From NCBI GenBank assembly GCA_963767925.1, contig CAVYGB010000002.1, positions 768,001-832,000 of the forward strand: a stretch of 64,000 bases of DNA. Reading direction: 5' to 3'. This stretch comes from an uncultured delta proteobacterium. Its GTDB lineage: Bacteria > Myxococcota_A > Polyangia > Fen-1088. Both the position numbers and the translations under genes were made by a program. Under the pieces are notes generated by a model. That model was given only the letters and a program-made list of their open reading frames with translations, did no database searches and had not been told where the DNA came from. This document shows, piece by piece, positions 45,920 through 52,184 of the stretch; the first letter of the stretch is position 1; each line of letters starts with the position of its first letter.

Positions 45920-45934
45920 ATGCAGCGGACTGCC

Positions 45935-46600
45935 TGCCTCTGCCCTGCCTCCTGCCCCTGCCCCCTGCCTCTCCCTCTGTCTGCCTCTGCCTCCGCCTCC
46001 GCCTCCGCCGCCTCCCTCTGCCTCCGCCGCCTCCCTCTGCCTCCGCCGCCTCCCTCTGCCTCCGCCGCCTCCCTCTGCCTCCGCCGCCTCCCTCCGCCTC
46101 CGCCGCCTCCCTCCGCCTCCGCCGCCTCCCTCCGCCTCCGCCGCCTCCCTCCGCCTCCGCCGCCTCCCTCCGCCTCCGCCGCCTCCCTCCGCCTCCGCCG
46201 CCTCCCTCCGCCTCCGCCGCCTCCCTCCGCCTCCGCCGCCTCCCTCCGCCTCCGCCGCCTCCCTCCGCCTCCGCCGCCTCCCTCCTGCCTCCGCCGCCTC
46301 CCTCCTGCCTCCGCCGCCTCCCTCCTGCCTCCGCCGCCTCCCTCCTGCCTCCGCCGCCTCCCTCCTGCCTCCGCCGCCTCCCTCCTGCCTCCGCCGCCTC
46401 CCTCCTGCCTCCGCCGCCTCCCTCCGCCTCCCTCCGCCTCCCTCCGCCTCCGCCGCCTCCCTCTGCCTCCGCCGCCTCCCTCTGCCTCCGCCGCCTCCCT
46501 CCTGTCTCCGCCGCCTCCCTCCTGCCTCCGCCACCTCCCCGCCTCCCTCCTGCCTCCGCCGCCTCCCTCCTGCCTCTGCCTCCGCCTCGCCTCTGCCTCT
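45935..46600. repeat. Purine-poor minisatellite: blocks of 19/20-bp units related to the hexamer CTCTGC
   Basis: Runs of CTCCGCCGCCTCCCTCTGC, ..CCCTCCGC and ..CCCTCCTGC. Confidence 0.95.
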
Positions 46601-46813
46601 GAAAACGCGAAGCTGAGTAGCAGTTGGGGCGGTGGGCATGTGGGCAAACGCGTCTGCGCGTCTGCGCGTCCGCTCTGCGCGTTTGTCCAAGGGGTGTGGG
46701 CAGTCTGCTGTCCACACCCCGGCATGTCCACGGCCCACCCCGCACCCCAGCGCCCCCCCATCCTCCCGTCCGGCGCCCGCCTTCACCCGAAGGCTGCGCC
46801 CGACCATCTGCCC
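46596..46813 (+). repeat. Left structured arm flanking the RAYT-like gene
   Basis: Imperfect inverted copy of 47838-48029; three GTGGGCA...TGTCCA stems. Confidence 0.85.
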
Positions 46814-47881: not shown

Positions 47882-48029
47882 GGGAAAGGGGCGGCGCTCG
47901 GGTGGGGGTGGGCCGTGGACATGCCGGGCTATGGACAGCGGACTGCCCACAGCCCTTGGACAAACGCGCAGACGCGTTTGCCCACATACCCACAGCCCCA
48001 GCTGCTACTCAGCTTCGCTTTTCAGAGGC
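47838..48029 (-). repeat. Right structured arm flanking the RAYT-like gene
   Basis: GTGGACATGCCGGGCTATGGACAG..GGACAAACGCGCAGACGCGTTTGCCC..CTACTCAGCTTCGCTTTTCAGAGG, inverted copy of the left arm. Confidence 0.85.
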
Positions 48030-48172
48030 AGAGGCAGAGGCAGAGGCAGAGACAGAGGCAGAGGCAGAGGCAGAGGCAGAGGCAGAGGCAGAGGCAGAGG
48101 CAGAGGCAGAGGCAGAGGCAGAGGCAGAGGGCAGAGGCAGAGGCAGAGGCAGAGACAGAGGCAGAGGGCAGA
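48023..48172. repeat. (CAGAGG)n microsatellite, more than 20 copies
   Basis: Directly visible; abuts the right arm. Confidence 0.95.
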
Positions 48173-48320: not shown

Positions 48321-48326
48321 GGGCAG

Positions 48327-48789
48327 CGGGGGGACTGACCGAAACGGCTTGCCGCTCGCGGCGGTCGGGACGAACGGCTTAATCACCCGGTCTGGTGGCG
48401 GGGGGACTGACCGAAACGGCTTGCCGCTCGCGGTGGCAGAGACGAACGGCTTCATCACCCGGTCTGGTGGCGGGGGGACTGACCGAAACGGCTTGCCGCT
48501 CGCGGCGGCAGAGACGAACGGCTTCATCACCCGGTCTGGTGGCGGGGGGACTGACCGAAACGGCTTGCCGCTCGTGGCGGCAGAGACGAACGGCTTCATC
48601 ACCCGGTCTGGTGGCGGGGGACTGACCGAAACGGCTTGCCGCTCGCGGTGGCAGAGACGAACGGCTTCATCACCCGGTCTGGTGGCGGGGGGACTGACCG
48701 AAACGGCTTGCCGCTCGTGGCGGCAGAGACGAACGGCTTCATCACCCGGTCTGGTGGCGGGGGGACTGGCCGAAACGGCTTGCGGCTCG
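48327..48789. repeat. 72-bp tandem repeat, 6 full copies plus a partial one
   Basis: GGGGGACTGACCGAAACGGCTTGCCGCTCGCGGCGGCAGAGACGAACGGCTTCATCACCCGGTCTGGTGGCG. Confidence 0.95.
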
Positions 48790-48797
48790 AGAGGGGG

Positions 48798-49670
48798 TTA
48801 TTCGGGTGCGAGCATGGATTTGGTGTGGGCGATGACGGCTTGGTTGCCGGTGCGGAGGCCCCATTGGGCGCCGAGGGCGGGGAAGGAGGCCCAGCGTTCG
48901 GCGGCGTGGTGTGGGAGGCCGGGCCAGGTGCGGCCTCCGGCGCGTTCGAACAAGGCGATCAGGCGGGCCAGGGACTCGGGGCCGAAGCAGCCGTGGAACA
49001 TGGCCAGGTCGATCGACGGGTCGGTCACCTGGGCTTCGGTCCAGTCGAGGATGCCGGTGACGGCGCCCTCTCCGTCGAGCAGCATGTGGCCGGGGTGCAG
49101 GTCGCCGTGGACCAGGGCCAGGTGGGGCGGCCAGCCCTCCTCGCTGTCGAGCCAGCGGTGCCAGCGCGCCCACAGGGCGTCCGTTGGCTGCAGCACCTCC
49201 CGGGTCTCCTCCATGGCCTTGCGCAGGGTCGCCCGCGATTCGGCCAGGTCGCGCACCGGCACGCCGGCGTTGCGGACGGCGTCGACCGGTACCGCCTGCA
49301 GGGCGGCGAGAGACTCTGCCATCGAGGCCAGGAAGCGCTCGGGCGGGGCCTTCTCGTTCATGTTCCAGATCGGCCCCTCTGCCCCGATGGTGACCGCCGG
49401 GGTGCCCGCCAGCCGCGGGTAGGCGATCAGATCGAGGGCGTGCACCCGCCAGTCGGGGACCGCCACCGGCATGCGCGGCTGGAGCAATCGCAGCACGCGC
49501 GCCTCGACCCGGGCCGACTCCACCACCTCCGGCCGCCGCGGGGTCCGCAGCACCCAGGCCTGGCCCGCCTCGTCGCGGGCGTGGACGACCCGGAAGTCGA
49601 GGCCGGTGCCGTCCACCTCCGGCGCGGCCGCCCCCACCTCGAGCCCGTGGCGTCGGGCCAGGGCGAGCAG
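48798..49670 (-). CDS. mph: Macrolide 2'-phosphotransferase domain, probably the C-terminal part of an HflX fusion
   Basis: LARRHGL, GLDFRV, WVLRTPRR, VPDW, HGDLHPGH and ILDWTEA; no start codon just before the conserved N-terminal segment. Confidence 0.85.
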   Translation of the reverse strand: MLALARRHGLEVGAAAPEVDGTGLDFRVVHARDEAGQAWVLRTPRRPEVVESARVEARVLRLLQPRMPVAVPDWRVHALDLIAYPRLAGTPAVTIGAEGPIWNMNEKAPPERFLASMAESLAALQAVPVDAVRNAGVPVRDLAESRATLRKAMEETREVLQPTDALWARWHRWLDSEEGWPPHLALVHGDLHPGHMLLDGEGAVTGILDWTEAQVTDPSIDLAMFHGCFGPESLARLIALFERAGGRTWPGLPHHAAERWASFPALGAQWGLRTGNQAVIAHTKSMLAPE

Positions 49671-51144
49671 AATCCGCCGCCGTCTCGGTGGGCGGCGCCG
49701 TGGCCAGCACCCGCCGCCAGCGCTGCAGGGTCTCGGGGAAGGCGCGCACCCGGAGCTGGGCGCCCGCTTCGTCGTAGGTCTCGTGCAGCACCCGGGCGCT
49801 GCTCCGCACCTCTCCCAGCAGCCGCCCCTGCGCCGGCGGCACGGTCAGCACGTCGTCGACCATGCGCGTGTCGAAGAAGGCGACGATGCGCGCGCGCAGC
49901 CGCCCGGCGTCCTCGGGGGCCAGCGCGCTGAGGAAGAAGCCCTCCGGCAGCTCGCGGGCCAGCGCCTCCCGCCCGGCGGCGTCGACCCGGTCCACTTTGT
50001 TGAACAGGACCAGGTACGGCACCGCCGCCGCCCCCACCGACCCCAGCGTCTCGCGCACCACCTGGAGCTGCTCGCGCCAGTGCTTGTCGGAGGCGTCGAC
50101 GACGTAGAGGAGCAGGTCGGCCTCCTGCGCCTCCTGCAAGGTCGAGTGGAAGGAGGCCACCACCTCGTGCGGCAGGCTCTGGATGAACCCGACCGTGTCC
50201 GAGACCAGGATGCGCGGGGCGGTGGTGGGGGCCAGCGCCCGCACCGTCGTCCCCAGGGTCACGAACAGCTCGTCCTGCACCTCGACCTCGCTGCCGGTGA
50301 GCGCCCGCAGCAGCGACGACTTGCCGGCGTTGGTGTAGCCGACGAGGGCCACCTGGGGCGCCTCGCCCCGCCGCTCGCGCTGGCTGGCCTCCAGCGTGCG
50401 TAGCCCCTCGAGCTCCCGGCTGAGGGCCGCCACCCGCCCCCGGATCTCCTGCTTGCGCAGCTCGACGTTGGTGTGGCCCCGCTCGCCGCGCCCGCCGCCG
50501 CCGCCCTCCCGGGCGGCCCGGTCCTCGTCCTCGCGCACGCGCGGCGCCTCGTAGCGCAGGCGCGCCAGCTCGACCTCGAGCCGGGCGGTCCGGGTGCGGG
50601 CCCGCGAAGAGAATACGCGCAGGATGATGTCGGTCCGGTCCGCCACCGGCGCGTCCAGGGTCTGCTGGAGCTGGTGGAGCTGGCCGGGCCGCAGCGGGCC
50701 ATCGATCACCACCAGCGGCGGCGGGTTGTCGGGCCCGCGCCGCAGGTCCTGCAGCTGGGTCGCCAGCTCTTCGAGCTGGCCGCTGCCGATCACGCCCGCG
50801 CCACGCGGGGGGCGCTTGACCACCCGCGTGTCGGCCACGCGCAGGCCCAGGCCCCGCACCAGCCGGGTCAGCTCGAGCAACGAGCCGTCGGATCCCCGCC
50901 ACCCCACCAGCACCGCGTCCGCCGGGCGGGCCGGGTCGAGCGCCTGCCTAGCGCGGGCGTCATCGGGAGACGGAGGCAAAGACGGAGAAGGAGGCAAAGA
51001 CGGAGAAGGAGGCAAAGACGGAGAAGGAGGCAAAGACGGAGAAGGAGGCAAAGACGGAGAAGGAGGCAAAGACGGAGAAGGAGGCAAAGACGAAGCGGAC
51101 GAGAAGGCACGGGCAGGATGGCCGGAAAGTGGACGGGTCGGCAT
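49671..51144 (-). CDS. hflX: GTPase HflX domain; the frame has no stop at the domain end
   Basis: IL..F..RART, EVELARLRY, GYTNAGKSS, DTVGFI and NKVD; AAGGAG RBS before ATG 51144. Confidence 0.9.
50965..51092 (-). repeat. In-frame 18-bp tandem repeat x7 (SLPPSP) in the hflX N-terminus
   Basis: GGCAAAGACGGAGAAGGA units on the + strand. Confidence 0.92.
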
Positions 51145-51383
51145 GGAAAGAGCTCCTTCGCTCGCGCGGGCGCAAGCGGGCGGGAAAAAGGCACGAGATC
51201 CTCGGCGGCACGCGGCGAATGAAACAGCCGCGCGGCGGGGCAATAGCCGGGCGCGAAAGAACCAGATACCTCCGCGCTCAGCAGTCTGCGCGGCCCGTCA
51301 GTGAGAGCGGGCCGGCACGAGCGGGGTGTCAGAGCCCTTCACAGGTTGCGAAGGCGGGCTCGACACTGGCGGGGCGGCGCTGT

Positions 51384-51410
51384 TCAGCGCAGCCGGAGGT
51401 AAGCGCGCAT
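51384..51410 (-). promoter_or_regulatory. Leader peptide uORF MRAYLRLR (putative macrolide-sensing attenuator)
   Basis: ATG CGC GCT TAC CTC CGG CTG CGC TGA, 240 bp upstream of hflX; complementary to 51267-51292. Confidence 0.7.
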
Positions 51411-51625
51411 AGTGGGCAAAACGTGACACCGATCGGTCGGTCGCGCAAGCCCGTTGTGGAAAGAGCCCGGCGCCGGGGCCCGGCTCTGCGGGCGCGCAAT
51501 CCGGCGACACCCGACGTGTCTTCCGGCCGCGACGCGGGATTGAACCCACACCGTCAGGTAGTAACCTGCATGTGGATGGCGGCGATGAACGACTCTGTCA
51601 GGTCACCCGCGCGGAAGGAGGCGCC

Positions 51626-51907
51626 ATGAGCGTGTTTCCGCACCGATGCCCCGCTTGCGGCTCACCCGCTTACATGGGGTTCAAGGACGTCGATTGCAGC
51701 AACCCGCATTGCCCCCACGCGGGGCCGACGGCGCAGGCGCGGCGGAAGAAGCCGCGCACCAGCAGCTTCACCTGCTGGAGCGCGGATCGCGGCGGCCCGC
51801 CCTGCACCGGCGTGGTGGTGGTCACCGACGGCAAGGGCACCTGCCCCCGCTGCGGCAGCCACTACGCCACCGGCCGCTCGCCCGGCAGCACCTCCTCGCG
51901 ACCCTGA
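51626..51907 (+). CDS. Small Cys-rich putative zinc-ribbon protein (93 aa)
   Basis: AGGAGG RBS; CPAC, CSNPHC, two further Cys and CPRC. Confidence 0.7.
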   Translation: MSVFPHRCPACGSPAYMGFKDVDCSNPHCPHAGPTAQARRKKPRTSSFTCWSADRGGPPCTGVVVVTDGKGTCPRCGSHYATGRSPGSTSSRP

Positions 51908-51980
51908 CCGCCGCGCGGGCGGGTCCCGCGTGCGCCCGGTAGAACGCCCCCGCGACGGGCAGAGGTTCCCCGGGATCCGA

Positions 51981-52184
51981 CACGTGCACGTCTTTCGAGC
52001 ACGAGCACGAGCACGTCTTTCGTGCACGTGCATCCGTCAGACGTGAACGGAAGACGTGCTCGTGATCCGTCAGACGTGAACGCCACACCTGCTCGTGCTC
52101 GCGCTCGAAAGACGTGCAGGAATCCGTCAGACGTACACGACGCACGTGCTCGTGCTGGTGCTCGTGCACGAAAACACGTGCACG
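51981..52184. repeat. Intergenic GCACGA/GTGCAC-rich structured repeat
   Basis: 29-bp inverted repeat (51985-52013 / 52090-52118) and three ATCCGTCAGACGT copies (52032, 52065, 52122). Confidence 0.8.

Follow-up and report, generated by a model that had tools for sequence, protein, structure and literature searches.

What does an open reading frame of only eight codons do ahead of a gene that joins the GTPase HflX to a macrolide phosphotransferase (Mph)-like domain? The locus in question lies in a stretch of 64,000 nucleotides (nt), hereafter called the window, on contig CAVYGB010000002.1 (positions 768,001 to 832,000) of an uncultured delta proteobacterium (Myxococcota_A, Polyangia). The original prediction, made from the DNA letters alone, regarded the reading frame as a leader peptide at which a macrolide stalls the ribosome, whereupon the leader RNA refolds and the locus is induced. 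Our analysis indicates that the upstream open reading frame (uORF) quite likely has a drug-sensor role for hflX-mph, a view supported by comparison across relatives with regard to both conservation and codon constraint. As the best explanation of the observations as a whole, we consider it likely that the product of the uORF is an arrest peptide of the +x+ type (Arg-Leu-Arg) which senses macrolides and acts through the course of events proposed below. For the step from stalling to expression, an erm-like four-segment translational switch that frees the hflX Shine-Dalgarno (SD) sequence is modelled here tentatively, and we rate its chance at somewhat less than even.

The uORF reads MRAYLRLR-stop and extends on the minus strand from an ATG at 51410 to a TGA at 51384. 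It was thus found where, and with the RLR ending that, the original prediction had given, and its eight sense codons place Arg6-Leu7-Arg8 in the register of ErmDL. The hflX ATG at 51144 is located 266 nt downstream of the uORF start on the same strand, and matches of the downstream sequence to HflX and Mph-like profiles bear out the assignment of the uORF to an hflX-mph locus. The genome to which the window belongs (9.34 Mb on 13 contigs, 84% complete) is placed in the Myxococcota by the named neighbours of its proteins. In it, open reading frames of 8–11 codons that end in R-[L/F]-R-stop number 29 on both strands, 12 of them with an ATG start, which amounts to a density of about 8e-4 in every 500 nt of a single strand. 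Because such mini-ORFs are so rare genome-wide, the presence of the window uORF goes beyond chance. The same scan found no R-[L/F]-R-stop uORF near the other two hflX-like genes of this genome. Three of the other 28 mini-ORFs were inspected: the longest open reading frames downstream of them had no NCBIfam match, and one of the mini-ORFs lies within long open frames.

Directly upstream of the window uORF is a promoter-like motif (51420..51448, minus strand) that consists of TTGCGC (51448–51443), a 17-nt spacer and CACGTT (51425–51420), with 9 nt from the end of the motif to the uORF ATG. When this layout was defined as TTGNNN, 16–18 nt and NANNNT, ending 6–10 nt upstream of the uORF start, it was present at 15 of 26 uORF loci and just upstream of 2 of the 29 genomic mini-ORFs, the window uORF being one of the two. 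The sole other R-L-R-stop mini-ORF of the genome with such a motif encodes MSRRPRLR (C2:1001304, plus strand). An SD-like tetramer within 13 nt upstream of the start codon was found at none of the 26 uORFs, that of the window included. Given the absence of SD-like sequences and the closeness of the promoter-like motif to the start at 15 of these loci, the 5' end of the transcript probably coincides with the uORF AUG or lies a few bases from it, and the uORF would be translated from a leaderless message. A soil-metagenome contig of 151 nt spans 51306–51457, i.e. the uORF and the promoter region, with two differing letters and one base missing at 51383, right after the uORF stop, so soil harbours a close relative of the window leader.

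Conservation of the uORF upstream of homologues, a check suggested by the original prediction, gave a clearly positive result. Of 18 HflX-Mph loci in the Myxococcota, 17 have upstream a uORF that ends in [I/V/L/A/T]-R-[L/F]-R-stop, with synonymous codon variation among them, versus 0 of 104 control hflX loci. The 18 loci comprise that of the window (with uORF), nine from a sample of 401 genomes of the class (9/9), seven from a sample of 401 genomes of the phylum (6/7) and one additional fusion, in genome G405, from a search of 43 genomes of family f40 (1/1, MIDSFYIRLR). L152 is the one fusion locus of the 18 that is not preceded by an RLR-stop uORF. Among the controls, 29 hflX loci come from 40 family and class relatives, encode proteins about 40–50% identical to the window HflX and have no adjacent mph gene; none of them has an RLR-ending uORF (0/29). 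The other controls (0/75) derive from a metagenome scan that returned 80 hflX loci of 34–51% identity, no orthologue among them and none with mph. When the in-frame window query was compared with genome contigs, only three loci of 39–50% identity were obtained.

In all nine fusion loci of the class sample the uORF is located 220–290 nt upstream, and the encoded peptides are MFAFIRLR (three times), MVAFIRLR, MAMFIRLR, MVFFIRLR, MSFAFFIRLR and, from GTG start codons, MLKSLRLR and MDILFYVRLR. The phylum sample was searched with HflX as query (E<=1e-95) and contributed 17 further loci, of which seven are fusions and ten contain hflX only. The six uORFs of the former encode MWTLLYARLR, MIDLFHIRLR (twice), MIDCFHIRLR, MRLFYYIRLR and MRKFCFYIRLR; an RLR-stop uORF also precedes three of the ten close hflX-only loci (MLNHTSTRLR, MATASLRLR and MIFYTRLR). 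A search with the Mph part detected an mph-like gene in 22 of the 401 class genomes, at 27 places. Stand-alone mph loci are preceded by an RLR/RFR-stop uORF in 7 of 18 cases; among the 17 such loci of the class sample, the uORF is found in the seven closest to the window (47–59% identical), with the peptides MVASVRLR, MVASIRFR (three times), MFAFIRLR, MSASIRLR and MTASIRLR. The stand-alone mph genes L121 and L123 have this same kind of uORF. Each of five genomes of genus g126 contains one fusion and one stand-alone mph gene (L136–L140), and each copy has its own leader. Since the loci are kin, with the fusions coming from about ten genera, the uORF counts overstate the number of separate observations.

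The pattern of variation within the uORFs is informative. R-[L/F]-R is present in 27 of 27 uORFs, with both arginines kept and either Leu or Phe as the middle residue, and at all 27 loci the stop codon follows directly after the second Arg. The residues N-terminal to the motif vary freely, and the length stays between 8 and 11 codons throughout (8 codons in 16 of the 26 uORFs counted). At the nucleotide level, we counted 13 different versions of the 12-mer encoding R-[L/F]-R-stop. Arg is specified by CGC, CGG, CGT or CGA (the second Arg by CGC or CGT), Leu by CTG, TTG or TTA and Phe by TTC, and TGA, TAG and TAA all serve as stop codons. This synonymous variation of Arg, Leu and stop codons suggests that selection acts on the peptide and not only on the RNA.

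The gene downstream is unusual in its own right. Its first 468 residues represent the GTPase HflX (49672..51144, minus strand; TIGR03156 with 304 bits vs a cut-off of 216.75; three Pfam HflX domains). The macrolide 2'-phosphotransferase-like half (48798..49670, minus strand) is offset by one base in frame from the HflX half. It matches the Pfam APH domain (6.7e-36) and the models for Mph(C) (2.4e-69) and Mph(A) (1.2e-62), with scores of 234 and 212 bits, respectively, that are below the allele-level ('exception' model) NCBIfam cut-offs of 550 each; judged by these matches, it is a distant Mph-like kinase. In the nine class fusion loci, HflX (49–60% identical) and Mph (38–63% identical) are encoded in one reading frame that specifies a protein of about 735–776 residues. 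The window locus aligns without gaps to the 735-residue fusion of L141, residues 34–438 in one frame up to 49672 and residues 439–727 in the next frame from 49670, and therefore holds the same fusion with a one-base offset near 49671. This offset may reflect either a true mutation or a fault of the assembly. The HflX frame in the window runs on open to 48742, and the first start in the Mph frame is a GTG at 49637, about 25 residues into the profile.

Fusions of this type are not confined to the window: 42 of 45 protein clusters matching the Mph half have the Pfam domains of both HflX and APH. Their sources are Nannocystis, Chondromyces apiculatus, Sandaracinus amylolyticus and Bradymonadaceae, and those that bear a name are called only 'GTPase HflX'. 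A full-text literature search, with subscription journals outside its coverage, found no paper describing an HflX-Mph fusion. The genome of the window contains three HflX-like genes, and the window copy alone has the uORF and the mph partner. As an extra copy beside housekeeping copies that is linked to a putative drug-responsive leader, the window HflX fits a feature of HflXr-like proteins. The closest HflX proteins found anywhere are 65% and 60% identical, and a search of 71 further genomes of the family to which this genome belongs detected an mph-like gene (E<=1e-30) in none. Transfer may have brought the locus into this genome.

In Gram-positive bacteria, macrolide sensing by RLR arrest leaders is textbook knowledge, and the window uORF resembles one of these leaders, ErmDL of Bacillus ermD, in being a short uORF ahead of a macrolide resistance gene with the +x+ motif at positions 6-7-8 and the same expected stall. 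ErmDL continues for six more codons past the motif, whereas the window uORF and all 27 loci have the stop directly after the second Arg. Other differences are the missing SD sequence and probable leaderless start of the window uORF, the host, which belongs to the Myxococcota, and the controlled gene, which encodes HflX-Mph and not a methyltransferase. On ErmDL, ribosomes exposed to erythromycin or telithromycin stall at the +x+ motif when Leu7 occupies the P site and Arg8 the A site (PMC8298421), and the original prediction was right to name R/K-x-R/K as the macrolide arrest motif of ErmDL-type leaders. Its second reference point, the control of Listeria hflXr by an RLR leader, is likewise documented: an RLR-containing uORF of 14 codons controls an intrinsic terminator at rli80/hflXr (lmo0762) of Listeria monocytogenes, as established by term-seq and mutants (PMC6310831). 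The window shares with Listeria an RLR uORF before a resistance-type hflX paralogue and housekeeping paralogues that are devoid of one. It differs in that the uORF has 8 codons and HflX is joined to an Mph domain. The absence of a detectable intrinsic terminator further sets the leader apart from rli80: none was called by a consensus scan of the window and none by a looser hairpin-plus-U scan of 25 leaders. The best window candidate in the looser scan, a bulged 6-bp stem before CUUUUUCC, was rejected as a terminator.

A third relative in kind is uORFC-6-1 of the Bacillales, described as a conserved Arg-Leu-Arg uORF within a covariation-supported RNA structure upstream of hflX (PMC8632094). The likeness to the window lies in the conserved Arg-Leu-Arg uORF, its setting within RNA structure and its position; in contrast to this Firmicutes element, the Myxococcota leaders cannot be aligned across lineages, and Rfam yielded no family at E<=1 inside the window leader (three weak matches to miRNA models lie at 51994–52141). 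Thus, ErmDL, rli80 and uORFC-6-1 already provide examples of RLR leaders ahead of macrolide resistance genes, hflX among them. Distinct here are the phylum, the probable leaderless start, the stop right after the motif, the lack of a terminator among the features found, and the HflX-Mph target.

In ermC-type attenuators, a ribosome halted on segment 1 lets segment 2 take segment 3 off the SD sequence, and the same four-segment logic is proposed for the window leader. The elements named in the original prediction are present where it placed them (all elements given here are on the minus strand). Segment 1 (51387..51401), inside the uORF, consists of UACCUCCG (51401–51394) and CUGCGC (51392–51387), which have their complements in CGGAGGUA (51274–51267) and GCGCAG (51291–51286). 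The latter belong to segment 2 (51267..51291), composed of GCGCAG and the SD-like GCGCGGAGGUA (51277–51267), which can pair with segment 1 or segment 3. Between the two pairing partners is the internal hairpin that had been predicted, P1 (51326..51366, GUGUCGAGCCC...GGGCUCUGACAC), which occurs in every fold. Segment 3 (51251..51263) is the anti-SD element GGUUCUUUCGCGC and has two alternative partners, segment 2 in a local hairpin and the hflX SD in a helix of 11 bp. Segment 4, GCGAAGGAGCU (51151..51161), holds this SD, GAAGGAG (51159–51153), which lies 8 nt before the ATG at 51144. Altogether, the window leader has four pyrimidine-rich, anti-SD-like elements, i.e. A0 in the uORF (segment 1), A1 in the 5' arm of P1 (GAGCCCGCCUUCGC), A2 (segment 3) and A3 (GUGCCUUUUUCC), and three SD-like elements, i.e. 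S1 in the 3' arm of P1, S2 (segment 2) and S3, the real SD (segment 4).

We propose the following course of events. Transcription would start at or a few bases from the uORF AUG, and the first ribosome would load on the leaderless 5' end. When no drug is present, it would complete the 8-residue peptide and leave at the UGA, so that segment 1 (UACCUCCG/CUGCGC) pairs with segment 2 (GCGCAG...CGGAGGUA). Segment 3 (GGUUCUUUCGC) would then be free to pair with the hflX SD in segment 4, and translation of hflX-mph would be low. If a macrolide or ketolide occupies the exit tunnel, translation would halt once MRAYLRL-tRNA has reached the P site and the Arg8 codon the A site, and the halted ribosome would mask approximately the first 35 nt of the RNA including segment 1. 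Segment 2 would now form a hairpin with the adjacent segment 3, and the SD would stay free. Once segment 1 is occupied, folding during transcription would favour the pairing of segments 2 and 3, which lie next to each other. The product made would combine HflX, for ribosome splitting, with Mph, for phosphorylation of the drug.

Several folding results are compatible with this model. The calculated duplexes A0:S2 (-23.5 kcal/mol), A1:S1 (-24.8), A2:S3 (-19.1), A2:S2 (-18.1) and A3:S3 (-11.7) form a pairing matrix that allows the exchange from 1:2 plus 3:4 to 2:3. The minimum free energy (MFE) structure of the leader (-124.2 kcal/mol) contains A0:S2, P1 and the 11-bp helix A2:S3, with the SD paired, and an alternative fold with the A2:S2 hairpin and a free SD is only 0.4 kcal/mol above it; when the first 35 nt were masked to mimic a stalled ribosome, the gap between these folds was 1.4 kcal/mol. 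The leader (G+C content 69%) folds better as a whole than its shuffles (z -2.69; 0 of 100 as good), and so does the segment 2:3 hairpin (leader nt 127–165; -20.1 vs -12.8 +/- 2.5 kcal/mol, z -2.92). The best complement of the hflX SD region in the whole leader is the 5' arm of P1 (-19.1 kcal/mol, z -2.31, p 0.026). Relatives lend the model modest support. In them, SD complementarity in the 70 nt upstream exceeds that of shuffles across 14 lineage representatives (Stouffer z -2.3, Fisher p 0.02), and the SD regions of L149 (p 0.018) and L167 (p 0.008) are located in significant hairpins. By our own reading, L148 and L149 have a common SD hairpin that is maintained through two one-sided changes. 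The start region of the window and its relatives shares the motif GCGAGCG[G/A]AGGAG. In the short leader of L121, the mph SD is itself the pairing partner of the uORF, as in the single-hairpin attenuators of cat and cmlA, and masking of the uORF raised the mean unpaired probability from 0.29 to 0.54 for the stretch from SD to start codon and from 0.31 to 0.56 for the SD alone. Unlike the ermC, cat and cmlA leaders, that of the window is much longer (240 nt), has extra SD-like and anti-SD-like elements and shows no clear switch in equilibrium folding.

A number of observations weigh against the arrest-peptide model or its individual steps. No other duplex between the uORF tail and the leader downstream is as strong as A0:S2, yet pairing as good arises in 32% of 300 dinucleotide shuffles of that leader part (mean -22.6, sd 2.3, z -0.42), and the uORF-tail pairing is likewise unremarkable in 16 further leaders (z -1.6 to +0.9). 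Hence the attenuator-like pairing, as distinct from the elements themselves, does not stand as evidence in the way the original prediction had used it. Refolding with the uORF masked, also suggested there, scarcely altered the predicted equilibrium accessibility of the window SD (0.57 to 0.62); over 25 leaders, accessibility rose in 12, fell in 3 and was unchanged in 10. Complementarity to the window SD within 70 nt upstream is not significant (z +1.09), the MFE structure shifts when the 3' end is lengthened or shortened by 10 nt, and leaders of different lineages cannot be aligned outside uORF and SD. With respect to transcription, a strict consensus promoter scan called none in the window leader, and the -10-like hexamer CACGTT is weak. 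The gene itself may be broken in this genome owing to the frame change near 49671. Finally, RLR alone is no guarantee of stalling because the context matters, as illustrated by MDTLNRLR, which fails to stall (PMC8298421); the window peptide has no sequence homology to ErmDL apart from the motif, and its N-terminal context is MRAYL instead of MTHSM.

Could the conserved reading frame be something other than a macrolide sensor? If it were untranslated, the conserved CGNYTNCGN-stop would serve at the RNA or DNA level, for example as one arm of a hairpin or as a site bound by a protein, and be open by accident. In our own reading of the leader folds, the L-R codons and the stop often appear to lie within a small hairpin with a GCGC-type sequence just downstream. 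We find this hardly credible given that an in-frame start 5–8 codons upstream and the stop right after the motif are kept at 27 of 27 loci, that third positions and the stop codon vary while the change from Leu to Phe preserves R-x-R, that the sequence outside the motif is unalignable between lineages, and that merely 29 such reading frames exist genome-wide. A translated uORF might instead sense a signal other than a macrolide, for instance general translation stress, other drugs acting at the exit tunnel or the peptidyl transferase centre, or the supply of Arg- or Leu-tRNA. Two observations fit this idea, namely the three hflX-only loci that have the same kind of uORF in spite of lacking mph, and the response of Listeria rli80 to lincomycin besides erythromycin (PMC6310831). 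Nevertheless it appears decidedly improbable, since the invariant R-x-R with Leu or Phe in the middle is the motif of macrolide and ketolide arrest (PMC8298421) and a macrolide phosphotransferase homologue is the partner at 24 of the 27 uORF-bearing loci. Moreover, two Arg codons that form no run and stand before a resistance gene are unlike an amino-acid attenuator.

A more serious competitor leaves the arrest peptide in place and changes its output to Rho-dependent attenuation: the stalled ribosome would block or refold a Rho loading site just after the uORF stop, as at tnaC. TnaC arrests at its stop codon in response to tryptophan and thereby controls Rho-dependent attenuation of the tna operon. 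The proposed arrest in the window would likewise fall on the last codons of a short leader ORF adjoining a C-rich stretch, whereas its signal would not be tryptophan and its position is placed at Leu7/Arg8 and not at the stop codon. When no ribosome is stalled, Rho would load on the long untranslated, C-rich leader and end transcription before hflX. The 240 nt of untranslated leader RNA in which no intrinsic terminator was found, the sense-strand excess of C over G seen in 24 of 25 leaders (ratio 1.34 in the window) and the lack of a clear SD switch in equilibrium folding of the window all speak for a role of Rho. The richest 78-nt stretch of the window leader (C/G 1.80) begins 6 nt after the uORF stop, and the coding part shows the opposite skew. 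C-rich leaders and absent terminators thus fit Rho-dependent attenuation in the manner of tnaC. Still, strong structure in the window leader (z -2.69) disfavours the loading of Rho, and the SD regions of several lineages, L149 and L167 among them, are held in significant hairpins. In addition, L121, L123 and L154 have just 57–63 nt between the uORF stop and the region before the start of the next gene and cannot work via Rho because this distance is too short for a Rho site. Taken together, we regard Rho-dependent attenuation downstream of an arrest peptide as unlikely, and retain a macrolide-responsive arrest peptide coupled to hflX-mph as the preferred explanation.

Some further features of the region were noted. 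A motif CCCGGGCGCGG, with the SD-like sequence GGAAGG/ACGGAG ahead of it, recurs in the middle of the leader in several lineages (L141–L149, L167). In L147 it precedes an in-frame GTG located 50 codons upstream of the ATG, and the motif may mark a second small open reading frame or an alternative start. In the window, a second open reading frame after the SD-like CGGAGGUA was considered and rejected, as there is no start codon 5–13 nt downstream. Open reading frames that overlap the leader on either strand had no significant family match; the one hit, for a reading frame on the plus strand, was to a zinc-finger domain below threshold (E 0.0029; 17.9 bits vs a cut-off of 25.8). A divergent open reading frame of 98 residues (51646–51942, plus strand) has a strong SD sequence, GGAAGGAGG, and a CPxCG-type motif near its N-terminus, and is without a Pfam match. 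Inside the 5' part of hflX, an 18-nt tandem repeat (50966–51092; 7.1 copies, 99% matches) encodes SLPPSP repeats that are absent from the proteins of relatives. One soil-metagenome contig skips 90 nt (5 units) of this repeat, whose copy number seems to vary. Dense tandem repeats are also present just downstream of the mph stop, at 48326–48789 (72 nt x 6.5), 48023–48172 (6 nt x 24.7) and 45932–46601 (19 nt x 34), and produce long open frames on both strands.

Our study thus raises the possibility, which we put a little below an even chance, that the Myxococcota contain a widespread and so far undescribed resistance module in which a leaderless arrest peptide of 8–11 codons ending in RLR-stop switches on a single polypeptide composed of HflX and a macrolide phosphotransferase. 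The same sensing solution would then exist in a phylum distant from the known cases, among soil predators that live in the company of macrolide producers, and in a stripped-down form without an SD sequence and with the motif followed at once by the stop. In practical terms, an RLR-stop uORF would flag a set of genes as macrolide-responsive ahead of any experiment, and the short uORFs represent natural variants of the context before RLR, a context that is known to decide on stalling. The HflX-Mph fusion would link ribosome rescue physically to drug inactivation. If the model is true, the same factor would bind and split the ribosome stalled by the drug and bring along the enzyme that inactivates the drug once released, and the fusion predicts that HflX-type resistance consists in dislodging or exposing the drug, beyond the recycling of ribosomes.

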